NCBI RefSeq assembly: GCF_013315695.1
Contig: NZ_CP054353.1
Length of the DNA: 64,000 nucleotides
Direction: 5' to 3' (one strand)
DNA from: Escherichia coli
GTDB lineage: Bacteria > Pseudomonadota > Gammaproteobacteria > Enterobacterales > Enterobacteriaceae
Both the position numbers and the translations under genes were made by a program. Shown piece by piece: positions 2,504 through 21,037 of this stretch. Every line of letters begins with the position of its first letter. Within the stretch, counting starts at the first letter, position 1. The notes beneath the pieces were generated by a model. That model saw only the letters and a list, made by a program, of their open reading frames with translations, did not search any database and was not told the DNA's origin.

Positions 2504-3892
2504 TCAGTGTTTATGTTCGGCGGTTAATTGATTAAATAAAGTGTCGAGTTTTGGATCGCCAATATAGTTATTAATCAATATCAGTGATTTATCCGTCACA
2601 CGTTTCACGCGCCCTTCCAGACTGGCATGAGTAACGACGATATCCGCATCCGCAGGCACGTTTTCTATCGCGTAATGTTTTACTTCAATTGGCAGCCCCG
2701 CTTTTTCCAGACGTTTACGGAAGGTGGTTGCGCCCATCGCGCTGGAGCCCATCCCCGCATCGCAAACAAAGGCGATACGCTTAACCCGGCTTAACGAGAA
2801 TGCACCCTCTTGTTTCATCGCCTTAACCGCATTGGCTGACTGAGCAAACTCATCTTCGTTCTCCGTTTCCACCGTTTTTTCCATCTTCAGTATCAGCGAA
2901 GTGATAGCAAAGGACACCAGGGTACCTACCGTAACACCAGCAATTGTCGCCAGGAATGAGCCTTTCGGCGTCAGCGCCAGGTAAGCAAAGATAGACCCCG
3001 GACTTGGGCCAGCCACCAGACCACCGTCCAGTAAGTTAAACATCCAGGTGCCAGACATACCGCCCGCAATCATGGCAATAATGGTCAGCGGCTTCATCAG
3101 CACATATGGGAAATACAGTTCGTGGATCCCACCGAGGAAGTGAATAATCATCGCACCAGGTGCAGAGCGCTTACTCATCCCTTTACCAAACAGAGTGAAT
3201 GCCAGCAACAGTCCTAAGCCAGGCCCTGGATTGGATGCCACCATAAAGAAGATGGATTTGCCGTTAACTGATGCCTGTTGCATTCCCAGCGGATAATAGA
3301 CGCCCTGATCGATCGCATTATTAAGGAAAAGCACTTTCGCCGGTTCATTGATGACTGACAGCAGAGGCAGATAACCCGCATGTACCAGCGCCTCAATACA
3401 CTCTTTGACGAAAGTATTGGCAATTAACACCGCCGGGCCGATCACTTCAAAACCCAGCAGACAAAGGAGCATCCCCGCGATACCTAATGAGAAGTTATTG
3501 ATAACCATCTCAAAACCGGCAGGTATGCGTTTTTCCAGTGCCTTATCGACATATTTTATGACCAGCCCACCTAACGGTCCCATAATCATTGAACCAAGGA
3601 ACATCGGGATTTCTGCGCCGACGATTACACCAATTGACCCTATTCCGCCCATGACTGCGCCGCGTTTACCGCCGACTAAATGGCCACCGGTAGAACCAAT
3701 CATCACGGGCAATAAATAGGTAATCATCGGGCCGACAATTTTGGCGAAATGTTCGTTAGGCAGCCAACCGGTGGGAATAAATAACGCTGTAATAAAACCC
3801 CAGGCAATAAAAGCACCAATATTGGGGATGACCATTGCAGTCAAAAAGCCCCCAAAAGCCTGGACCTTTGCACGAGCAGACTTGTTTTCCAT
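2504..3892 (-). CDS. cmtA: PTS mannitol-type EIICB component (cryptic)
   Basis: 462 aa ORF, polytopic N-terminal EIIC plus C-terminal EIIB-like domain (FVCDAGMGSS). Confidence 0.8.
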   Translation of the reverse strand: MENKSARAKVQAFGGFLTAMVIPNIGAFIAWGFITALFIPTGWLPNEHFAKIVGPMITYLLPVMIGSTGGHLVGGKRGAVMGGIGSIGVIVGAEIPMFLGSMIMGPLGGLVIKYVDKALEKRIPAGFEMVINNFSLGIAGMLLCLLGFEVIGPAVLIANTFVKECIEALVHAGYLPLLSVINEPAKVLFLNNAIDQGVYYPLGMQQASVNGKSIFFMVASNPGPGLGLLLAFTLFGKGMSKRSAPGAMIIHFLGGIHELYFPYVLMKPLTIIAMIAGGMSGTWMFNLLDGGLVAGPSPGSIFAYLALTPKGSFLATIAGVTVGTLVSFAITSLILKMEKTVETENEDEFAQSANAVKAMKQEGAFSLSRVKRIAFVCDAGMGSSAMGATTFRKRLEKAGLPIEVKHYAIENVPADADIVVTHASLEGRVKRVTDKSLILINNYIGDPKLDTLFNQLTAEHKH

Positions 3893-4583: not shown

Positions 4584-5005
4584 CCTCGCGCATACAGCCG
4601 GGCAGTGACGTCATCGTCTGCGCGGAAATGGACGAACAGTGGGGCTATGTCGGGGCTAAATCGCGCCAGCGCTGGCTGTTTTACGCGTATGACAGGCTCC
4701 GGAAGACGGTTGTTGCGCACGTATTCGGTGAACGCACTATGGCGACGCTGGGGCGTCTTATGAGCCTGCTGTCACCCTTTGACGTGGTGATATGGATGAC
4801 GGATGGCTGGCCGCTGTATGAATCCCGCCTGAAGGGAAAGCTGCACGTAATCAGCAAGCGATATACGCAGCGAATTGAGCGGCATAACCTGAATCTGAGG
4901 CAGCACCTGGCACGGCTGGGACGGAAGTCGCTGTCGTTCTCAAAATCGGTGGAGCTGCATGACAAAGTCATCGGGCATTATCTGAACATAAAACACTATC
5001 AATAA
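4502..5005 (+). CDS. insB: IS1 InsB (expressed as InsAB' fusion by -1 frameshift)
   Basis: 167 aa ORF overlapping insA in the -1 frame; matches IS1 InsB by sequence recall. Confidence 0.9.
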
Positions 5006-9553: not shown

Positions 9554-10306
9554 TCAGAGTAGTGATTTCACTTTATTTAGCAAAACGGCTACATCATCCG
9601 GTCGGGTATATCCCGTATCAGGGTCTATAATCGAGCTGTAAACATGTGGCATAATGCGCGGCACCCCCGCCTCCAGACAAGTTTTCAGAATCACACTGAA
9701 GTTATCCAAATCAATCCCGCCAGTCGGCTCAATCAGCGTCATACCATTGCGCGCCGCCGTGGTCGCCAGCGCGTATAGCTCCGGAAGCGACCTCTCGCCG
9801 CCCATCGGAAAGAACTTCGCCGCGTGTGCGCCCATATCTAGCATCATTCGCACCGCCGTATCGCAGGAGACGCGGGCTGGCGTACCCTGGCTGCTGCTAA
9901 CGCCGGTGGAAATCAGCACTTCGCCCGGCGTCCCCGTCGGGCTAACCAGCGCGTTGACATGGGTCTGCTCACCGCCCGTAGCCGCAAGCGCGCCTGCCGC
10001 GAACCCACAACCGGTAAAGGTCTGGTTAACGTGTGCTGGATGAATCTGCGCCGCAATCATCGCAGCTTTGTAATACTGCGCCGGGTCACCCGCCCCCAGA
10101 CCTACTGAAATGGACGGTATTTCCGCCATCCAACGTTTAACTTCCTGGATCCCCTCATCCACCGAGGAGAACTGCGCGGAAAGCACGCCAATCACTGCGT
10201 GGCCTTCGGCGGCGTCAAAGATTTCACGGGCATTGGCGATATCTTTCGCCAGCACATTAATTGCCACACGATTACGATAGAAATTAATCTTTTGCATGAT
10301 CTGCAA
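9554..10306 (-). CDS. dgaF: KDPG-aldolase-like protein, last gene of a sigma-54-dependent PTS operon (DgaF-like)
   Basis: 250 aa ORF at the distal end of the operon; assignment rests on operon context and analogy to the Salmonella dga locus. Confidence 0.55.
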   Translation of the reverse strand: MQIMQKINFYRNRVAINVLAKDIANAREIFDAAEGHAVIGVLSAQFSSVDEGIQEVKRWMAEIPSISVGLGAGDPAQYYKAAMIAAQIHPAHVNQTFTGCGFAAGALAATGGEQTHVNALVSPTGTPGEVLISTGVSSSQGTPARVSCDTAVRMMLDMGAHAAKFFPMGGERSLPELYALATTAARNGMTLIEPTGGIDLDNFSVILKTCLEAGVPRIMPHVYSSIIDPDTGYTRPDDVAVLLNKVKSLL

Positions 10307-11393
10307 TCTCCTTCAGTCGCGCCACGATAAGTGCCATTTCCCCTTCCGCCACCGTACGCGGATCAAGGCTAAAAACGCCCTGGTGGAGGTTATACCGCCG
10401 TGCATAAATCGCGATATCGCCACCACGCAGTTGCGCTTCGACGACGCGAGCGTCAACTCCCAATTCCTGCGCATTTACTCGAATACGAATACGCCAGATT
10501 GCACGCCCGGCTTCATCCTGCTCAATATCAGCCGTTAACCCGTGAATCGCAGAAATCGCTTCAACCACTGGCTGGAGCTGTTCCGCGGTGATGACTGCCT
10601 GCCCCTGGTGATAATTCTCCAGCGCGTAAACCAGCCCAACCATGTTCTCCTTGCCGATTTTCATCGCCTTGGCAATGCCGTGATGCTGCGCTTTGCAGGC
10701 TGCAATCCAGATTTTTTTACCAGTGATAAACCCGGAGGTCGGCGCGTTAAAGGCTTTTGCGCCGCTGTAGACCACCATATCCGCTCCACTCACCACCCAG
10801 GCACGTAAATCCTCTTCGGCGGCGGCATCGACAATCAGCGGCAGGTTGTACATCTGCGCGACATGTGCGAAGTCCTCGATGTTCAACATTCCCTTCTGCA
10901 CGCAGTGATGCGACTTCACATACAGCAGCGCGGCGGTCGCGTCGGTAATGGCACTCTCCAGCTGCCAGAGAGCCGCCAGGTTACTTGAACCCACCTCCAC
11001 AACGCGCCCGCCACCTAAGCGGATCGCGCTGAGGATCGATGCGCCGTAATCGACGTTATGGCCGCGCAGCATCACCACTTCATTGGCCATGCCGGAGCTA
11101 TCCGGCATGAGCGCCACCCGGGCCTTGTCGCCGCGGGTAATGGCGGCGGCGACAGCGATGGCGATCCCTGCTGAGGCACAGGAGGTAACGTAGCTATCCT
11201 CCGCCCCGGTAAAGCGAGAGACCAGCTCGCCGGTTTTGTCCACCAGCTGGTCAATCTCCACGAAAGAGGATGCCGCGCGCGCGGTGGCCTGCATCACCTC
11301 CAGCGCGACGCTGGAGACGCCGAGAATCGTCATCTTGCCGCAGGCGTTAATCACCTGTTTCAGTCCCAGTTGTTGATAGATATTCTGCGTCAT
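10284..11393 (-). CDS. dgaE: SelA-like PLP-dependent enzyme (D-glucosaminate-6-phosphate ammonia-lyase-like, DgaE-like)
   Basis: 369 aa ORF in operon with mannose-family PTS genes; family assigned by recall. Confidence 0.55.
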   Translation of the reverse strand: MTQNIYQQLGLKQVINACGKMTILGVSSVALEVMQATARAASSFVEIDQLVDKTGELVSRFTGAEDSYVTSCASAGIAIAVAAAITRGDKARVALMPDSSGMANEVVMLRGHNVDYGASILSAIRLGGGRVVEVGSSNLAALWQLESAITDATAALLYVKSHHCVQKGMLNIEDFAHVAQMYNLPLIVDAAAEEDLRAWVVSGADMVVYSGAKAFNAPTSGFITGKKIWIAACKAQHHGIAKAMKIGKENMVGLVYALENYHQGQAVITAEQLQPVVEAISAIHGLTADIEQDEAGRAIWRIRIRVNAQELGVDARVVEAQLRGGDIAIYARRYNLHQGVFSLDPRTVAEGEMALIVARLKEIADHAKD

Positions 11394-11396
11394 GGC

Positions 11397-12254
11397 TTAC
11401 AGCACTCCCAGCAGCGAGCAGACCACGCTCAACGCCACAATCGACAGCAGAATCGTGGTGTAACGCGGACCCTTTTTCACCAAATAGAAGTAGATGGCGA
11501 ACACTGCCGCCAGCGGCAGCAGGCCGGGCGCGATGGAGTCCAGAATCTGCTGTACCACCACTTCAGAGCCTTTCAGTGCGCTAATTTTTAAAGGTGAGGT
11601 TATCTTGACAAAGCTCGCGGATAGCGCGCCCATCATGATAAGCCCCAGTACATTAGCGCCGTAGATAAGCTCCTTGATGCGCCCCCCCTGCAGCAGGCTG
11701 ATAATCGAATCGCGCCCCAGCGTATAGCCCTTGTGCACCATGCCGTAGCTGATTGCCAGCGTAATCGCCGGGTAGAGAATCAGCGGCAAAATACCGCCCA
11801 TCGCGCTGCCATTGGCGGCGAACGGGATAAAAATAGCAATCAACAGCGGCATCACGGCCGCCCAGATGATGGAGTCGCCCATTCCGGCCAGCGGCCCCAT
11901 CAGGCCGGTTTTAATCCCGGTGATAGAGGCATCGTTAATCGCCTCGCCGCGGGTCTTTTGCTCTTCCATGGCGATGGAGATCCCTTGGATCACCGCGCCA
12001 AACGTCTGCTCTGAGTTGAAGAAGTTCAGATGGCGTTTTAACGCCTCCACCTGCTCCTCCTTTTGCGGATAGAGCTTTTTAATAATCGGCGTCATCGAGG
12101 CGCAGAAAATCAGGCTCTGTAAACGCTCATATGAGCTGGAAACTTCCGCGCCAAGCCAGTAGATAAACCACGCTTTGGTGATATCCGCTTTGGTCAGCGC
12201 CCCGGACTCCCGCGCGCGCTCCACCAGTTCATGCTGCATTACGTCGCCGCTCAT
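11397..12254 (-). CDS. dgaD: PTS mannose-family EIID component
   Basis: 285 aa polytopic membrane protein following the EIIC gene. Confidence 0.7.
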   Translation of the reverse strand: MSGDVMQHELVERARESGALTKADITKAWFIYWLGAEVSSSYERLQSLIFCASMTPIIKKLYPQKEEQVEALKRHLNFFNSEQTFGAVIQGISIAMEEQKTRGEAINDASITGIKTGLMGPLAGMGDSIIWAAVMPLLIAIFIPFAANGSAMGGILPLILYPAITLAISYGMVHKGYTLGRDSIISLLQGGRIKELIYGANVLGLIMMGALSASFVKITSPLKISALKGSEVVVQQILDSIAPGLLPLAAVFAIYFYLVKKGPRYTTILLSIVALSVVCSLLGVL

Positions 12255-13003
12255 TATGCCGCTCCTTCATTTTTCGCCAGGCCTTTAATCAGGAAGGCCA
12301 CGCAGGTGCCGAAAATCGCCATCGCCATGATGTCCACCTTGAGGTACAGCACCGCGAAGAATCCGCCGATAAACCACGGCAGTAGGCTCTTTTTACCAAT
12401 CACCATAATGGTGATGGCGAAGCCCAGCGCCGGGAGAATCCCGCCCATGATTTCAAACGAGTGGGTCAGCCAGTGCGGCATCAGCTTGAGGAAACTTTCC
12501 ACTACGTTCTGGCCGAAGTAGTTGGCGGCGAACACCACTGGGAAACGTAGCACCAGCCCCAGCAGCGCCGGGTAGAGAAAGGCGCAGCGCATAATGGCTG
12601 ATATATTGGCCGTTTCCGCGTGTTTATCGGCCATATGCACCCAGGCCGCATTTAGCGTGCGACGCAACTGGTCGAGGAATACGCCGATAACGCCAAATGG
12701 AATCGCCAGTGCAATCGCCAGGTTCGGGTCCATATTGGCCTTAACGGCGATAGGAATGGCGATACAGGCCGCCAGCGCCGGGTCTGACGGCACATTGCCG
12801 CCTGGCGTTGAGGTCACACCCAGATATACCAACTGCATCCCCGCGCCGATAATCATCGCCGCAGGCATGTTGCCGAGCAGCAGGCCGACAAAGACTGCCA
12901 CCACCACTGGCTGTAACAGCATGGCGGAGAAGGTATAGCCAAGGCGCAACCGGGCAAACCAGTAATACAGCCCCATCAGGCTTGCAAAAAGTAAGGTATC
13001 CAT
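12254..13003 (-). CDS. dgaC: PTS mannose-family EIIC component
   Basis: 249 aa polytopic membrane protein. Confidence 0.7.
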   Translation of the reverse strand: MDTLLFASLMGLYYWFARLRLGYTFSAMLLQPVVVAVFVGLLLGNMPAAMIIGAGMQLVYLGVTSTPGGNVPSDPALAACIAIPIAVKANMDPNLAIALAIPFGVIGVFLDQLRRTLNAAWVHMADKHAETANISAIMRCAFLYPALLGLVLRFPVVFAANYFGQNVVESFLKLMPHWLTHSFEIMGGILPALGFAITIMVIGKKSLLPWFIGGFFAVLYLKVDIMAMAIFGTCVAFLIKGLAKNEGAA

Positions 13004-13028
13004 AATTTGTTATCCCATGTTCAGAGGG

Positions 13029-13514
13029 TCAGAATTTTTTCAGGATATCGTCCAGCGACTGCGGCTTATCTTCCGGGATGGTCTGGAAAACAGCCTTAAT
13101 GCCGCGACTTTTCAAATCGTTAAGAATGCCAACGTCTTTTTCATCCAGAGTTATGTTCTGGAACACCGCTTTACGGTTTGGCCCGCCGCCTAAGCCGCCA
13201 ACCTGAATATCAGCCACGTCAAAGCCCTGCTGCACCGCTTCCTGAATCGCCGCCAGCGACGGGAACAGCACCAGCACGTTGCCGTCGCCCAGCTGGTTCT
13301 CTTTCCACGCGGCCGCGAAGCTCTGGTTGCTGAAGCAGTCCACTTTGATATTCGGCGGCGCGGCCATCAGGTAGATATTTTTCATAAACGGATCGGCGTC
13401 CAGCTCGTCGCTGACCACCGCAATACGGTTGGCCTGGGATTGCCCCACCCACTTCGTCACCACCTGTCCGTGGATAAGACGGCTGTCAATGCGACATAAC
13501 ACGATGTTTGCCAT
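13029..13514 (-). CDS. dgaB: PTS mannose-family EIIB component
   Basis: 161 aa; N-terminal MANIVLCRIDSRLIHGQV is the EIIB-Man phosphorylation-site signature. Confidence 0.75.
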   Translation of the reverse strand: MANIVLCRIDSRLIHGQVVTKWVGQSQANRIAVVSDELDADPFMKNIYLMAAPPNIKVDCFSNQSFAAAWKENQLGDGNVLVLFPSLAAIQEAVQQGFDVADIQVGGLGGGPNRKAVFQNITLDEKDVGILNDLKSRGIKAVFQTIPEDKPQSLDDILKKF

Positions 13515-13524
13515 ACGATTTTCC

Positions 13525-13953
13525 TTACTGTTGTAATTGACGAATATGGGAGACGACGTCCAGGCAACTGTTGCGCCCAGCTTCCACCAGATCGGCCACG
13601 CAGGCGGTCAGTGGGCCATGTTCGCGCTTGTCCAGCGCCTCCAGCAGCAGCGAGGCATTAAGCCCGGAGATCACCGCCACCGGATAATCGGCGCTCAGCC
13701 GCGCCGCCACGTTAGAGGTGGTGCCGCCGATAAAATCGGTCACGATAAGAGAACCTTCTGGCATGGTTTTCACCACGGCTTCGACGCGCTGGTAAAACTC
13801 GCCCAGCGTATCGACAGGCATCAGCGCGATTTCCGTCACGCCTTCGATTTCGCCCATCACCATGCGCAGACTGTTGCAGAGCTGCAGCCCCCAGCCGCCG
13901 TGAGTTAGCAGCAGAATTTCAGGTAACGGATGAATAGGTACAGTTGTGGTCAA
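13525..13953 (-). CDS. dgaA: PTS mannose-family EIIA component
   Basis: 142 aa; apparent TTG start preceded by AGGAGG Shine-Dalgarno; first gene after the sigma-54 promoter. Confidence 0.7.
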   Translation of the reverse strand: MTTTVPIHPLPEILLLTHGGWGLQLCNSLRMVMGEIEGVTEIALMPVDTLGEFYQRVEAVVKTMPEGSLIVTDFIGGTTSNVAARLSADYPVAVISGLNASLLLEALDKREHGPLTACVADLVEAGRNSCLDVVSHIRQLQQ

Positions 13954-13991
13954 AATAGCCTCCTTTGCTCCAGTGTTTACATTTCATCAGG

Positions 13992-14007
13992 AGCAAAGGA
14001 CGTGCCA
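13992..14007 (-). promoter_or_regulatory. Sigma-54 (RpoN) -24/-12 promoter TGGCAC-N5-TTGCT driving the PTS operon
   Basis: Minus strand reads TGGCACGTCCTTTGCT, an exact match to the GG-N10-GC consensus, about 40 bp upstream of the dgaA start and just downstream of the sigma-54 activator gene. Confidence 0.8.
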
Positions 14008-14071
14008 GAATTTGTGTCACGCACAGAGGAAATGAGATTGGATGGGGCGTTAAGCCCCGTAAACCAGGGGA

Positions 14072-16912
14072 TCAGCTGTAGAGCAGTTCGTAGATATAAA
14101 AATATTCTGCGTCCGATAAACGGATAGCGTAAGCCTCTTCAATCGGCAAAAAGGAGGATTTGATGACGCTAAAGGCACGAGCGTCCAGATCAAGCCGGTT
14201 TTCTAGCGCCATCTGTAACGGTTTGCGGTTAATCACGATACGCTCGACCATGCAGCAGCAGTGGATCAGAAAACGTAGTGTCACCTGGCGGCTCGGTTTC
14301 AGGGAGAGCGTGTTGGTTAAGTGGTTCAGAACGTCCTCGATCTCTTTCAGAATTCGCTGCGGGTTGAGCACCGAAATATGGTTGATGATGCTCTCCATGG
14401 TCAGCGCGCTGATAAAACGCATGGCGCTGCGCTCCATCTCCAGTCGGCGCTCGCTGCTTGAGAGATCCGGCGTCAGCAGGCTGAGCACCAGCTCTGGCCC
14501 TTGCTCGGAAAACAGTTCCTCCAGCGAGATAAACGGTATATCCGGCAGTCCCGGCTGGAAGGTGCCGACGATCCCTGCCAGCCGTTCACTGGCATTAAGC
14601 GCCTGCTGAATACGCTCCAGGCTGCGCACCTCGTTATAGTCGAGAATCACCATACGCGTGTCCTGCGACATCAGCTCGCCAAAGCTCTCCTCCAGCACCT
14701 TTTTGATCTTTTCCGCCGTCCCCATTCCGGTTATACATGAGATAACCAGCACTTTGCCACCGCTCTCTTGCTGCGGCGTGCAGAGCCGACAAGGGATATT
14801 TTTACTCTGCATAAGCACAGCCAATTGCGATAGATCGCCAGTTTCGTAGCTTAAATCCAGCCCCACCTCCAGCAGGCTGGTCAGAGTGATATTTGGCAAC
14901 AACAGAACGTCAATCTGGAACAGCTTGCTGATGGTGCTGCCAAAATGGACCAGCGATCCGATATCCACCATCAGTATCAGCCGCTGCCAGCACCGGTCCT
15001 GAATCATCCGGGTCAGGGTTTCCAGGGTGTCATGCACCGACTGCTCAAATGGCATATCAATTGCGTAGAACAGATCGCGCTCCAGCACCCGATTCACATA
15101 TTGCGCCTGGCTCGTTGCGGTGGTCGCACCGTGAGCGATTAGAATCACGCCGCAATCCGGGCTGGTGTCGATGCGCTGGCGGTAGTGGCGACACTCTTTC
15201 AGGAACAGGCACAGCCAGACCACCTCCGTCGCCGGGCACTGAATATGCAACAACTCATTGATTTTGCGGCACAGAAGTGTCGCATTGTCATACTCATCTT
15301 TACAGCGATCCAGAATCAGGCTGGATGAATAGAGTTGAGGTATAAGCCCTCGCCGCACATAGCCAATCAGCGCAAGAAAGTGTTTACGTAACGGGTTCGC
15401 CAGGTTTTCTGGCAATGTAAATCCTAATACCTGCTCCACGTAACCGATCAGCAGCGTCACACGCTCCTCAATTTGATCGCCATAGCGCGGTGGATGCGCC
15501 GCACTATGGCGGCTATAAAGACCATATTCAAAAATCGAACTGAGTTTGTTTTTCAGGATAGCCAGCGTTTCTGCGGGCGGCACGTTACTGTTGCGCAGAT
15601 TGACATATTCACGAGTCAGGAAACTGTAAAACAGGTCGCTCTCTTCTATTTCCGCGCTGGTCGCCAACGAATTTTTTAACGCGGGCAACGTACGCGCATC
15701 CACGTTCAGACGATCTTTACCACCAAACAACGCATCGACCAGCAGACGCTGCTCTGGCGTGGTATTAAACGACATCTCCGCCAGTCGTTTATCTAACTCT
15801 AGCGTATCATTACGCTCGGTCATTCCCGACGCCCACGCCTGCGCGCACAAGAACTGAATATCACTTTTAAGCTGGCCGATATTGCCTTCCAGGGATTTAC
15901 TTAACAACCAATGCAAGAGCGTTTTATCAAGGCTTATGGTACGTTCAATTTTACGACTTTCACGCTGAAAGAAGCTTACAATCAATTCGAGCTGCTCCTC
16001 GACCGAACGCTGGCGAATACCCGGTAAGTCAATACATACCTGGATACGCCGCTGGAAGGTACGCAATAGTGCCGAGTTGACCGACTCTGTAGTGGCGCAA
16101 ATAAGGCGCACCGAAATTGAATATGTTGGCCCACTTGAACCAAGTGGGCGGTATTCACCTTTATCGAGAATAGAAAAGAGCTTCTCTTGTCCTTCGTACG
16201 GGAGGCGATGCACTTCATCCAGAAGTAAATAGCCTCCGTCAGCTTGCTCCACCAATCCCGTTTTATTCTCACTTGCCCCGGTAAATGCCCCCTTATGGTG
16301 ACCAAACAGATGTGAGGAAAGCAACTCCGGATTATGAGCATATTCGGCACAGTTAAAGTAAACCAACGGAGGTAGCGAACCTATGGTGTGCTTGCAAGCG
16401 AAGCAATGCATTAACTCAGCAAAGAATGTTTTGCCAACACCAGATGCCCCGGTTAACAGCACATGTAGTCCGTGGGGATAGAGCACCGCTGCGCGGCCTT
16501 TTTCTACCGCATCACGGAGACTACGGTCGTATCCGATAAGTCCGGAAAACGGATCATCATCTGTATATTTTTCTTTCTTTGGCAATAAACTAGCCACTGA
16601 ATGAACTATGCATTCGCAATCATCCAGTTTTCGATTAATGAGCAATTCTAGTGCGTGACGATGTAGAAAAAAAACAGGACGTCCCTGACTTTTTACCACC
16701 AGGCCTTCATTCCATAATTGATTAAGATCTTTACTAACCGAGTTGCGTGCCAGCCCAAGGTTAAAACCAATCGCCTCAGCAGTAAATGCTTTCTCCTTCG
16801 CTAAATCAGACAGTTCCAGCCCATACGTCAGCCGCTCCAGCTCCTTGTGAATAACATCAATCCGTCTCATTTCTTTACCGCTTAAAAAACAATAGTTGTT
16901 CAGAACATACAC
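14072..16912 (-). CDS. dgaR: Sigma-54-dependent transcriptional activator with PTS regulation domains (LevR/DgaR-like)
   Basis: 946 aa ORF; AAA+ sigma-54 interaction domain with Walker A (GASGVGKT) and GAFTGA motif; long C-terminal region consistent with PRD/EIIA-like domains. Confidence 0.8.
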   Translation of the reverse strand: MYVLNNYCFLSGKEMRRIDVIHKELERLTYGLELSDLAKEKAFTAEAIGFNLGLARNSVSKDLNQLWNEGLVVKSQGRPVFFLHRHALELLINRKLDDCECIVHSVASLLPKKEKYTDDDPFSGLIGYDRSLRDAVEKGRAAVLYPHGLHVLLTGASGVGKTFFAELMHCFACKHTIGSLPPLVYFNCAEYAHNPELLSSHLFGHHKGAFTGASENKTGLVEQADGGYLLLDEVHRLPYEGQEKLFSILDKGEYRPLGSSGPTYSISVRLICATTESVNSALLRTFQRRIQVCIDLPGIRQRSVEEQLELIVSFFQRESRKIERTISLDKTLLHWLLSKSLEGNIGQLKSDIQFLCAQAWASGMTERNDTLELDKRLAEMSFNTTPEQRLLVDALFGGKDRLNVDARTLPALKNSLATSAEIEESDLFYSFLTREYVNLRNSNVPPAETLAILKNKLSSIFEYGLYSRHSAAHPPRYGDQIEERVTLLIGYVEQVLGFTLPENLANPLRKHFLALIGYVRRGLIPQLYSSSLILDRCKDEYDNATLLCRKINELLHIQCPATEVVWLCLFLKECRHYRQRIDTSPDCGVILIAHGATTATSQAQYVNRVLERDLFYAIDMPFEQSVHDTLETLTRMIQDRCWQRLILMVDIGSLVHFGSTISKLFQIDVLLLPNITLTSLLEVGLDLSYETGDLSQLAVLMQSKNIPCRLCTPQQESGGKVLVISCITGMGTAEKIKKVLEESFGELMSQDTRMVILDYNEVRSLERIQQALNASERLAGIVGTFQPGLPDIPFISLEELFSEQGPELVLSLLTPDLSSSERRLEMERSAMRFISALTMESIINHISVLNPQRILKEIEDVLNHLTNTLSLKPSRQVTLRFLIHCCCMVERIVINRKPLQMALENRLDLDARAFSVIKSSFLPIEEAYAIRLSDAEYFYIYELLYS

Positions 16913-17127: not shown

Positions 17128-18048
17128 TTACTCGCCCTTTTTCGCCGCCTGAATATACAGCATTTCCAGCGCCAGCGTCGCCGCAGCCAGAGCGGTGATT
17201 TCCGACTGATCGTATGCCGGAGCCACTTCCACTACGTCCATCCCAACAATGTTGAGATCTTTCAGGCCGCGTACCAGTTTAATAGCGCGATCGGAGGTCA
17301 GGCCGCCAATTACTGGCGTACCGGTTCCCGGCGCGAAAGCAGGATCCAGGCAGTCGATATCAAAGGTCAGGTAAACCGGCATATCACCTACAATCTGTTT
17401 CACCTGAGCGATAACGTCATCCACGCTGCGATCGTTCACCTGGCAGGCGTCCAGCACGGTAAAACCGTTGTCTTTATCAAACTCGGTACGAATACCAATC
17501 TGCACGGAATGATTCGGGTCGATCAGACCTTCTTTCGGCGCGGTATAGAACATGGTGCCGTGGTCAAATTCACAACCGTTCGCATAGGTGTCGGTGTGGG
17601 CGTCAAAGTGTACCAGCGCCATTTTGCCGAAATGCTTCGCATGAGCACGCAGCAGCGGCAGCGTAACAAAGTGGTCACCACCGAAGGAGAGCATACGCTT
17701 ACCGGCAGCCAGCAGCTTCTCGGCGTGCGCCTGCAGCTTCTCGCTCATCTCACGGGCATCGCCGAAGGCATATACCAGATCGCCGCAGTCCACGACGTTC
17801 AGGCGCTCACGCATGTCGAAATTCCACGGGAAGCGATTGTGTTCCCAGGCCAGATTCGTCGAAACCTGACGGATCGCTGCCGGACCGTGGCGACCACCCG
17901 CACGACCAGAAGTGGCCATATCGAACGGCACGCCAGTAATCACCCAGTCAGCATCGCTGTCATATGGCTGGAAGTTCATCGGCAGGCGTAAAAAACCAAA
18001 GGCGTTGGAAACCAGTGAGTTATCGTATTGATGACCTAAGGTGCTCAT
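17128..18048 (-). CDS. speB: Agmatinase
   Basis: 306 aa; ureohydrolase motifs (GGDH, DAHTD). Confidence 0.95.
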
Positions 18049-18183
18049 GGATGGACTCCTATTACAAAGTCGATATAAAAAAACCCTTCCGCGTCGTTAG
18101 GCCCGACGAGGAAGGGTTGGATTTGCGAAACACAAGTTTGCGCTAATTATCGCCTTAAATGGACGAGGCATCAAGCGAGGTTG

Positions 18184-18915
18184 CTATTTCCGACACGGTG
18201 GCGGCGCATAGCCATTGTTGTCCGCCGGAAAGGCTTGTCCAGAGCACGGCGGCAGCGCGTTTTGCGCCGGGCCTTGTAATTCAAAGGCGGCAAAGCCGAT
18301 TACACCGGTATTACGCACATCGCCTTGCGCCGAATTGGCTGCGTAGGAATCAGCAACGTTGGCGAACTGAAAAGCCGCTTCGGTATGTTTATCTTTGCGG
18401 AATCCTTTAATCGCTAACGAATCTCCGGCATTCACAATATAGCCGTTGTTATTCAGCGAACCTTGCTTGCCGTTCAGCACATCCAGGCCATCAACCGTAG
18501 CAACGATCTCGTAGTTGGTATTACGACTGTAATTGCGGACATATAATTGATAATTCATTCCTACTCTGGCATGGACAATATAGCGTGGTTCATTATTGGA
18601 TGAATCATAAACCCGCGTAATAGGTAGAGAATTAAAATTACCATCGCGAATAGCATATTCCAGTTCGTTAATACGAATGCTATAAACGCGGTCGTAGCCC
18701 GAAGGAACAGTAGTCGAATAACTAATAACGATCATCTCTGCCGGATCGCGCCAGGCTCGCTCAGCAGATACGCCCTGAACCGATGAGTGCACATCCCCAC
18801 CCCAGGCGGTGCCGACATTGCCCGATGTACTGCTATTATACTGCGCATTACTGGAACAACCGGCCAGCAGCACGGCTAATGCTATCAACGCGCTACGTAC
18901 TTTCCATTTTTTCAT
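18184..18915 (-). CDS. Predicted lipoprotein of unknown function
   Basis: 243 aa; signal peptide with lipobox LLAGC; RBS GAGGGA upstream; flanked by AT-rich sequence. Confidence 0.6.
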   Translation of the reverse strand: MKKWKVRSALIALAVLLAGCSSNAQYNSSTSGNVGTAWGGDVHSSVQGVSAERAWRDPAEMIVISYSTTVPSGYDRVYSIRINELEYAIRDGNFNSLPITRVYDSSNNEPRYIVHARVGMNYQLYVRNYSRNTNYEIVATVDGLDVLNGKQGSLNNNGYIVNAGDSLAIKGFRKDKHTEAAFQFANVADSYAANSAQGDVRNTGVIGFAAFELQGPAQNALPPCSGQAFPADNNGYAPPPCRK

Positions 18916-19060
18916 AACCGTTCCCTCTGCATTTAATTAATGCAGCGATTGTAGGGGGATTATTTAATAAGAAAAGCAGCTAAATTATTTTTAAGAATAT
19001 ATAAAAAGAAAGCGGGCCGATTTACGTAAATAAATCGACCCGCCAGCGGAATAATCTTAA

Positions 19061-21037
19061 TTATTCATCTTCAAGATAGGTATAACCGTACAAACCTGCC
19101 TCGAACTCTTCAAGGAACTGTTGTTGCAGTTCAGCATCAAGATCGGTTTTCTTCACTTGATCACGGAACTGGGTTAACAACGTTTTCGGATCGAGCTGTA
19201 CATATTGCAGCATATCCGCCACGGTATCGCCTTCGTCAGACAGTTCTACTTCTACGCTGCCGTCAGGGAAGACGAACACGTCAACCGCTTCGGTATCACC
19301 GAACAGGTTGTGCATGTTGCCGAGGATCTCCTGATATGCGCCGACCATGAAGAAACCGAGCATCGGCGGATTCTCTGGATCGTACTCCGGCATTGGCATT
19401 GTCGTGGCAATACCATCACCATCAATATAGTGATCAATAGCACCGTCAGAGTCACAGGTAATATCCAGCAGCACAGCGCGGCGTTCCGGCACTTGATCCA
19501 ACCCTTCCAGCGGCAGAACCGGGAACAACTGGTCGATCCCCCACGCATCCGGCATCGACTGGAACAGCGAGAAGTTGACGTACATTTTGTCCGCCATACG
19601 TTCCTGCAGCTCGTCGATAATCGGACGATGAGCACGGTTTTGCGGATCCAGCTGCTTTTGCACTTCATGGCACATGCTCAAATAAAGCTGCTCAGCCCAT
19701 GCGCGTTCTTGCAGGCTAAAGGTGCCGGAAGAGTAGCCGATATGAATATCGTGCAGATCCATCTGGCTGTCGTGTAACCATTCACGCAGAGAACGGCGAG
19801 TTCCCGGTTCGTGCATCTCCTGCCAGGTTTCCCACATGCTTTGCAGGGCGCGCGGTGCGTCTTCTGCAGGCGCGGTCGGCACCGTGTATTCGTTACGTTC
19901 CACGCCGATGATATTCGACACCAGCACGGTGTGATGCGCAGTCACCGCACGACCCGACTCGGTGATTACCGTCGGATGTGGCAGACCATTTTCTTCACAC
20001 GCATCACCAATCGCCCAGATGATGTTGTTGGCGTATTCATTGAGGCCGTAGTTCACCGAACAGTCGGACTGCGAACGGGTGCCTTCATAGTCCACGCCCA
20101 GACCGCCGCCGACGTCGAAGCACTGAATATTGACGCCCAGCTTGTGCAGCTCAACATAGAAACGCGCGGATTCACGAACGCCTGTCGCGATATCGCGAAT
20201 ATTCGCCATCTGCGAACCGAGGTGGAAGTGCAGCAGTTGCAGGCTGTCGAGACGCCCGGCTTCACGCAGCGTTTCAACCAGTTGCAGTACCTGAGTCGCC
20301 GCCAGGCCAAACTTCGATTTTTCCCCGCCGGAGGACTGCCATTTACCCGAGCCCTGCGAAGCCAGACGTGCACGCACGCCCAGACGAGGAACGACATTCA
20401 GACGTTCTGCTTCATCCAGCACAATGGCAATTTCTGACATCTTCTCAATGACCAGATAGACCTTGTGGCCCATCTTCTCGCCAATTAATGCCAGGCGGAT
20501 ATATTCGCGGTCCTTATAACCGTTGCAGACGATGACGCTACGGGTCATGCCAGCATGTGCCAGCACTGCCATCAACTCCGCTTTGGAACCGGCTTCCAGA
20601 CCCAGCGGTTCGCCCGAATGAATCAGGGACTCAATCACGCGACGGTGCTGGTTAACTTTGATCGGATAAACAAGGAAGTAATCGCCGTTATAGCCGTAGG
20701 ATTCCCGCGCACGTTTGAACGCGGCGTTAATGGAACGCAAACGGTGCTGCAGGATCTGTGGGAAACAGAACAGTGCAGGCAGACGCTGACCCTGTGCTTC
20801 GCGAGTTTTCACTAACTGCGCGAGATCGACGCGAGCTTCCGGGACGTCCGGGTCCGGGCACACGCTAATGTGGCCCAGCTCGTTAACGTCATAGTAGTTA
20901 TTGCCCCACCAGGCAATATTGTAAGTACGCAGCATCTTGCTGGCTTCCTGGGAGCTCATTGCAACCTCCTGCATGGAGCGTAGTACACCGTGTTCGCCCG
21001 CTGACGAAGGCAAACCCATAGACATGTCGTCAGACAT
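19061..21037 (-). CDS. speA: Biosynthetic arginine decarboxylase
   Basis: 658 aa from [12 protein letters not shown]...; PLP-dependent decarboxylase recognised by sequence. Confidence 0.95.

Follow-up and report, generated by a model that had tools for sequence, protein, structure and literature searches.

A conserved lipoprotein gene between speA and speB in most Escherichia coli genomes but not in K-12

Introduction

Co-transcription of speA and speB in Escherichia coli K-12 is textbook knowledge, and the induction of speB by agmatine has long been known and is unexplained. Szumanski and Boyle reportedly found in 1990 that K-12 speB is transcribed from a promoter of its own and also, by read-through, together with speA. 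A first-pass annotation of the DNA described here described the two genes as closely spaced in K-12, and the K-12 spacer (strain BW25113) is indeed only 137 bp long. In the present sequence, a 64,000-nucleotide stretch of the E. coli chromosome (hereafter the window), the corresponding spacer spans exactly 1,012 bp (18049–19060) and contains an additional gene for a predicted lipoprotein.

This gene is already known as an annotated gene in thousands of genomes, where it carries the RefSeq labels 'lipoprotein', 'membrane protein' or 'hypothetical protein'. In the literature searched, whether by locus tag, by accession or by topic, no paper, experiment, transcript map or proteomic evidence concerning it was found. 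The explanation that we consider probable as a whole is that the gene belongs to an ancient, self-contained cassette encoding a putative Lol-sorted lipoprotein, that speB is served by its own promoter, and that the K-12 allele is a diverged replacement.

Results and Discussion

Organization of the spacer

The spacer is bounded by speA, which encodes biosynthetic arginine decarboxylase (19061–21037, 658 aa from the annotated ATG), and by speB, which encodes agmatinase (17128–18048, 306 aa). With the last nucleotide of speA at 19061 and the first of speB at 18048, the interval that had been flagged is the whole spacer. Both genes, the lipoprotein gene between them and the other elements of the spacer described below are all on the minus strand. 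The annotation of speA is identical in the RefSeq loci of K-12 and O157:H7 (L001 and L002, respectively), and speA of the window differs from that of K-12 at 46 of 1,977 nt.

The GC content of the spacer is uneven. The portion upstream of the lipoprotein gene, including the speA terminator described below (18916–19060), contains 34.5% GC, as compared to 50% for the whole window, and the portion downstream contains 47%. Therefore, only the upstream flank is really AT-rich, and the first-pass description of AT-rich flanks applies to that side and not to the other. The lipoprotein gene itself has a GC content of 49%, near that of the window.

On the other side of speB, a 7.4-kb block that the K-12 and O157:H7 loci do not have separates speB from loiP (9554–16912, minus strand). 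The products of this block are a 946-aa sigma-54 activator that contains a PRD domain, mannose-family PTS components IIA, IIB, IIC and IID, a SelA-like enzyme and a KDGP aldolase, and the block is presumably the counterpart of the D-glucosaminate (dga) operon of Salmonella.

The lipoprotein gene and its conservation

The single long open reading frame of the spacer (18184–18915, read from 18915 to 18184) encodes 243 residues with the N-terminus MKKWKVRSALIALAVLLAGC. It is preceded by a Shine-Dalgarno sequence, GAGGG (18923–18927), located 7 nt before the ATG, in agreement with the ribosome-binding site attributed to the gene in the first pass. Read directly from the sequence, the N-terminal segment MKKWKVRSALIALAVLL consists of a basic n-region followed by a hydrophobic h-region, as in a signal peptide, and residues 4–18 were modelled as a helix by AlphaFold2. 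The segment ends in a lipobox (LLAGC) in which L-A-G-C20 matches the pattern [LVI][ASTVI][GAS]C, and the cysteine is invariant in all 67 aligned family members. Serine occupies both the +2 and the +3 positions after this cysteine, so that no aspartate is found at +2.

A word-indexed search identified 290 homologues, with identities of 75% for Salmonella, 62–73% for Citrobacter and Klebsiella, and about 40% for Variovorax, Paracoccus and others. An exhaustive profile search extended the family to 4,185 clusters at 50% identity, 3,248 of which were matched with E ≤ 1e-10. The alignment of 67 sequences has an invariant core motif, YE[IV]VATVDGLDV...GS...GY...GFRK...AAF, and a conserved C-terminal tail, AFP...YAPPP.

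The alleles used to assess selection, all of them intact, came from E. coli, from three more species of Escherichia and from a divergent genome that bears the label E. coli. The differences among these Escherichia alleles are mainly synonymous, with dN/dS values of 0.04–0.18; the value against the Salmonella allele is 0.07, at saturated dS. Nine alleles were inspected across Escherichia, Salmonella, Citrobacter and Klebsiella; each is intact and encodes a protein of 242–244 residues. These sequence comparisons argue that the open reading frame is a real gene, rather than a chance one, and that it is under strong purifying selection. The lipobox, the homologues and the substitution pattern thus bear out the earlier assignment of a 243-residue lipoprotein gene to the position between speB and speA. 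Its loss from one third of E. coli genomes, together with an IS1 element in strain MS 21-1 and a split match in strain 23CRST038 (see below), could be taken to mean that the frame is a decaying or non-functional remnant; however, the dN/dS range, the nine intact alleles and the retention of the family motifs as far as the Beta- and Alphaproteobacteria leave that reading with almost no weight.

Terminator of speA and leader of the lipoprotein gene

A terminator scan located a hairpin 17 nt past the speA stop codon (19011–19044, read from 19044 to 19011), with a stem of 15 bp, seven of which are G-C, a 4-nt loop and a T-run that extends to about 19001. Its folding energy is −26.9 kcal/mol, with a z-score of −5.1 relative to shuffled sequences. 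The hairpin recurs in the equivalent place in Salmonella, Citrobacter, Klebsiella, Kluyvera georgiana and Intestinirhabdus, with compensatory changes in its stem; in six genera, stems of different sequence occupy this one position. The stem-loop, U-tract, stability and compensatory changes identify the predicted 3' end of speA as an intrinsic terminator, as the first pass had read it. This speA-proximal terminator is absent from K-12.

The terminator is followed by the 95-bp, AT-rich 5' region of the lipoprotein gene (18916–19010). Because a consensus promoter scan gave no full sigma-70 match there, the gene's own promoter is a putative one, represented by the −10-like hexamer TACAAT (18948–18953, read from 18953 to 18948). 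The hexamers TACAAT, TACACT and TACTAT occur at the equivalent place in Salmonella, Klebsiella and Citrobacter. Immediately before the Shine-Dalgarno sequence is the palindrome CTGCATTAATTAAATGCAG (18927–18945), with the arms CTGCAT...ATGCAG; the corresponding site in Salmonella (L004, about 4975–4997) has the arms CCCCCT...AGGGGG. The different arms at the same site hint that a 5'-UTR hairpin abutting the ribosome-binding site may be conserved.

Promoter and leader hairpin of speB

A sigma-70-like promoter of speB, TTGATG-17-GATAAT (18146–18174), was found by a promoter scan and begins 9 nt past the lipoprotein stop codon, such that speB would keep a promoter of its own in the presence of the additional gene. 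The corresponding K-12 promoter is TTGAAT-17-GATAAT (L001, about 3230–3260). The motif CTTGAA-N17-(GGC)GATAAT, that is, CTTGAA-N17-GGCGATAAT, is found in Enterobacteriaceae both with and without the lipoprotein gene and also in Pantoea, and is absent from the three Erwinia spacers that were read. In C. freundii (L005, 5736–6011), an insert of about 125 bp, by eye resembling an ERIC (enterobacterial repetitive intergenic consensus) element, separates the speB promoter from the hairpin described next.

Folding of the region downstream of the promoter gave a small hairpin, followed by a larger, terminator-like hairpin (18077–18118) with 9 + 5 bp, a 7-nt loop and a subsequent run of seven T residues, located 29 nt upstream of the speB ATG. 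The Shine-Dalgarno sequence of speB, AGGAG (18056–18060), lies between this hairpin and the start codon. The 20-nt core of the hairpin, CTCGTCGGGCCTAACGACGC, which includes the 7-nt loop, has a single exact occurrence in the genome of each of 77 species, which range from Escherichia to Pantoea and Erwinia; these species, one genome each, were found by exact match to the core, and the invariance of the core follows from the way in which they were selected, but the breadth of its distribution does not. The core is always located just upstream of speB, at 41–195 nt from the start codon across the 77 species, and hairpin and T-run are present in all of them, including the Erwiniaceae. Two pairs of the outer stem covary, and 98.9% of cells in the stem are paired, as compared to 39–60% when the partners are slid. 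An Rfam search of the interval gave only chance-level matches, leaving the speB-leader hairpin without an Rfam family, and the literature searched contained no paper on it. As the conserved promoter lies upstream of it, the hairpin looks like a leader attenuator or the end of a small RNA, rather than an ordinary terminator, to judge from its sequence and position. In our view, this near-invariant element is more intriguing than the lipoprotein gene itself.

Since the promoter motif and the hairpin are shared by short alleles, a terminator-like element lies between speA and speB regardless of the lipoprotein gene, and these predicted signals would part the two genes in both the long and the short form. 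The proposal that the gene separates speA from speB transcriptionally is therefore not upheld. The cassette adds a second strong predicted terminator right after speA, together with 0.9 kb of distance, and read-through from speA to speB is probably lower in strains with the long allele than in K-12. No terminator belonging to the lipoprotein gene itself was found in the interval; its transcripts would therefore end at, or pass through, the speB-leader hairpin. That conserved hairpin would then act as the 3' end signal of the lipoprotein gene and, at the same time, as the leader of speB.

Distribution in Escherichia coli and related species

Among 5,426 complete E. coli genomes, 3,541 (65%) have the interval in full, and the rest match its flanks only. 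The junction seen in K-12 occurs in 1,865 complete E. coli genomes, nearly all of them identical to K-12 at this site. In K-12 BW25113, only the flanks of the query match; the K-12 spacer thus has no such gene, and K-12 does not contradict the first-pass observation on this point. At the sensitivity of the search, the gene was not detected elsewhere in that genome either. All other species of Escherichia that were sampled have the gene, and E. fergusonii contributes a member to the 90% cluster of the lipoprotein. In Salmonella, it lies directly after speA and is followed by another gene block that displaces speB. The arrangement of the window, with speA on one side of the gene and speB on the other, recurs in C. 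freundii and in a Klebsiella lineage.

Two strains show irregular intervals. In MS 21-1, whose flanks are 100% identical to those of the window, an IS1 element interrupts the interval, and in 23CRST038 the match to the interval is split into two places; such disruption of the gene or spacer is secondary and occasional.

The spacing of speA and speB was compared in the 77 species with an exact match to the hairpin core, which are not an unbiased sample of Enterobacterales. Ten of them have the lipoprotein gene in this spacer: E. albertii, E. whittamii, E. sp. E1V33, E. sp. MOD1-EC7003, a divergent 'E. coli' representative, C. gillenii, C. portucalensis, Kluyvera georgiana, Intestinirhabdus alba and K. 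spallanzanii. No match to the lipoprotein was found in the other 67. For 49 of these 67, among them K. pneumoniae, K. oxytoca, Raoultella, Pluralibacter, the C. amalonaticus group, Trabulsiella, Pantoea and Erwinia, the spacer was fully captured and measures 139–292 bp, except in Yokenella (2,031 bp).

Species without the lipoprotein gene can have other sequences in the spacer. In Yokenella regensburgei (L077, 801–2498), it holds a 130-aa HTH-like and a 433-aa open reading frame, by eye a HipB/HipA-like pair. Many short spacers contain REP/BIME-like palindromes (GCCCGGTGGCGCTGCGCTTACCGGGCC, GCCGGATAAGGCG and others) between the speA stop codon and the speB promoter, among them L022, L057, L058, L062, L065, L068, L040 and L078, and CCCTCTCCC...GGGAGAGGG hairpins likewise fill short spacers. 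This variety suggests that the speA-speB spacer, next to the speB promoter on its upstream side, takes different cargo by lineage: the lipoprotein gene, a HipBA-like pair, or REP or ERIC elements. One contig labelled Chryseobacterium sp. 18061 (L050) has speA and speB with 96% protein identity to E. coli and the enterobacterial hairpin, and this assembly is probably mislabelled or contaminated.

Origin of the cassette

The proposed cassette consists of the strong speA terminator, the AT-rich 5' region and the lipoprotein gene, inserted between the speA stop codon and the speB promoter. Its left junction, TAATTAAGAGTATTCCGCT, right after the speA stop codon and joined to the terminator, is homologous in all long alleles. 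Because this junction and the position of the terminator are common to all of them, the cassette has one origin. Within the core-matched sample, the short spacer is both the majority state and the state of the Erwiniaceae, and the cassette is thus most simply read, from these sequences, as an old insertion within the Enterobacteriaceae. The patchy presence of the gene in Klebsiella, Kluyvera and Citrobacter fits either many losses or recombinational transfer; after the insertion, the cassette was either lost repeatedly or passed on by recombination via its highly conserved flanks in speA and speB.

The first-pass annotation had suggested an insertion that splits a compact operon. A recent horizontal insertion in this strain or its lineage would agree with the lack of the gene and the 137-bp spacer in K-12, with the AT-rich upstream flank and with the short spacer of most Enterobacterales. 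However, the gene is carried by 65% of E. coli and by all other Escherichia species sampled, its dS of about 0.3 is what vertical descent predicts, and homologous junctions exist in other genera, so that a recent arrival is highly improbable. Neither convincing flanking repeats nor an open reading frame with a mobility function, an integrase or an IS element was found in the interval or at its borders; with a gene GC content of 49% and homologous junctions, insertion as a mobile element or genomic island was rejected as well. The idea of an insertion thus survives at the old, order-wide scale and not within the strain or within E. coli.

The K-12 short allele

Within Escherichia, the long form is ancestral and the short form of K-12 is derived. 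The proposed cassette would accordingly be ancient in the Enterobacteriaceae and ancestral for Escherichia, with about one third of E. coli, including K-12, carrying the short allele.

In K-12, the piece between the speA stop codon and the hairpin is 60 bp long, GTCCTGTGTTACTTGAATCCGCTTAATTTAGCGGTGATAATCCGCCACAATTTATTGTGACAAATCC. Aligned to the piece of the long allele between the lipoprotein stop codon and the hairpin, it scores 16, versus 7.3 ± 1.4 for the null (0 of 1,000 shuffles as good), with an identity of only about 65% to this promoter piece of the long allele. The similarity to the region upstream of the lipoprotein gene is not significant, as 106 of 1,000 shuffles performed as well. 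By comparison, speA and speB differ by 1.5–3% among the window, K-12 and O157:H7. The final 19 nt of speA contain two further K-12-specific changes.

If the cassette had simply been deleted within E. coli, this would explain the collinear flanks, the identical hairpin and speB side, and the complete lack of the gene in K-12, and the near invariance of the short allele across 1,865 genomes suggests a single origin. Such a deletion would, however, have left about 98% identity in the 60-bp segment, given flanks that differ by about 2%, and the two additional changes at the end of speA also stand against it; we consider it unlikely. The best reading of these comparisons is that the K-12 short allele is a diverged replacement acquired by recombination from another lineage, rather than a clean deletion. 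Such an exchange would have had its crossovers within the 3' end of speA on one side and within or past the invariant hairpin on the other. None of the 77 species yielded a donor of the K-12 allele; the closest similarity was 86% over 35 nt, in Pluralibacter.

Family, predicted structure and proposed role

The lipoprotein was compared with the named lipoprotein families of NCBIfam and Pfam, namely ActS, LptM, Lpp and the RpoE-regulated lipoprotein. No Pfam family was assigned, the best E-value for any of the 67 family members being 0.016, and no named NCBIfam family matched at its threshold, the best being ActS at 16.9 bits against a cut-off of 375, with a match to the signal peptide only. PADLOC returned zero matches, and PHROG gave only matches with E-values of 0.011 or worse, partly on the signal peptide; an anti-phage defence gene or a phage-derived gene was accordingly rejected as an identity for the lipoprotein. 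A profile search of the PDB with the lipoprotein gave one chance match (E = 0.96), and no PDB relative was found by sequence or by fold.

An AlphaFold2 model built from the family alignment (pLDDT 85.5, pTM 0.76) has an all-beta body, joined to the N-terminus by a disordered linker (residues 21–30, pLDDT below 50).

According to the +2 rule, the residue after the lipobox cysteine determines Lol sorting, and a residue other than aspartate directs the protein to the outer membrane. In the proposed mechanism, the lipoprotein would be made with its signal peptide, cleaved and lipidated at Cys20 and, because a serine follows the cysteine, would be carried by the Lol pathway to the inner leaflet of the outer membrane. 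There, the disordered linker of about 12 residues would tether a compact, sandwich-like all-beta domain in the periplasm, most likely a non-enzymatic binding or scaffolding module of the envelope. Given the lipobox, the serine at +2 and the lack of a catalytic-looking motif, our best guess from the model is a Lol-sorted outer-membrane protein whose beta-sandwich domain binds something periplasmic.

The genomic contexts of the family vary. No recurrent neighbour of the homologues was found outside the Enterobacteriaceae, and distant homologues lie inside a his operon, beside recO, beside an aldehyde dehydrogenase gene and beside a BrkB-like gene. On a metagenomic contig, a family member (L011 and L012, 6001–6813) is located within the histidine operon between hisD and hisC, along with a 115-aa open reading frame without a Pfam match. 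In Trabulsiella guamensis (L013, 6001–6759), a 44%-identical paralogue is flanked by a DUF1161 gene and a UPF0257 gene, and a GNAT acetyltransferase gene is located two genes away. We take this block to be that of ynfD-ynfC-speG-ynfB in K-12, where speG is located; if so, the paralogue may have a second polyamine-gene neighbourhood, although a coincidence is possible.

The lasting proximity of the gene to speA could mean that the lipoprotein is tied to polyamine or agmatine metabolism, for example through binding or sensing in the periplasm: the gene follows speA directly in all Enterobacteriaceae that have it, even in Salmonella with its displaced speB, and the Trabulsiella paralogue near a GNAT acetyltransferase gene, at a presumed speG-like site, points the same way. 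On the other hand, a strong terminator insulates the gene from speA, one third of E. coli and most of the sampled Enterobacterales lack it, and the distant homologues occupy the unrelated his, recO and aldehyde dehydrogenase contexts. We consider a polyamine role unlikely, and a binding or scaffolding module of the envelope is preferred.

Implications

The lipoprotein gene is an ordinary strain difference between K-12 and most E. coli, not a fresh insertion, and its absence is one of many such differences between K-12 and other E. coli. Work on speA-speB transcription in K-12 may nevertheless not transfer to most E. coli, in which a strong terminator and an extra gene lie between the two. With no Pfam model, no solved structure and no assigned function, the family, which comprises about 4,200 clusters at 50% identity, would reasonably repay both curation as a family and structure determination.

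A more far-reaching joint reading, to which we give little credence, is that the long/short polymorphism rewires putrescine synthesis, that co-transcription in K-12 is a derived peculiarity of an imported allele, that the speB hairpin is an attenuator, and that the lipoprotein founds a family with a new fold. If all of this were true, most E. coli would feed speB only from its own promoter through the leader hairpin, the attenuator could serve, for example, the induction of speB by agmatine, and the new fold would be a beta-sandwich shared by a large family of envelope proteins for which no model exists.

Comparison with known systems

The closest annotated relatives of the gene are its orthologues. 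That of O157:H7 is the RefSeq entry WP_000758914.1, 'lipoprotein', with 97.6% nucleotide identity over the interval, and the Salmonella 'outer membrane lipoprotein' entries (UniRef A0A701H2Z8) are orthologues with 75% protein identity. Length, lipobox and place after speA are the same in all of them; these entries, like the many labelled 'hypothetical protein' or 'membrane protein', are annotation only, and the literature searched gave neither function nor structure for them.

The best structural matches to the model are MATH/TRAF-like and Ig-like beta-sandwiches, including the MATH domain of SPOP, the TRAF-like domain of USP7 and designed Ig domains. The feature in common between the lipoprotein model and these domains is an antiparallel beta-sandwich.

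Both hairpins of the interval share a GC-rich stem and a T-run with intrinsic terminators and leader attenuators. In contrast to ordinary terminators, the speB-leader hairpin is far more conserved, including its loop, and sits downstream of a promoter.

The K-12 arrangement shares with the window speA, speB, the hairpin and its T-run, the Shine-Dalgarno sequence of speB and the −35/−10 geometry of the speB promoter. It differs by having neither the speA-proximal terminator nor the lipoprotein gene, and by a promoter piece that is about 35% diverged.
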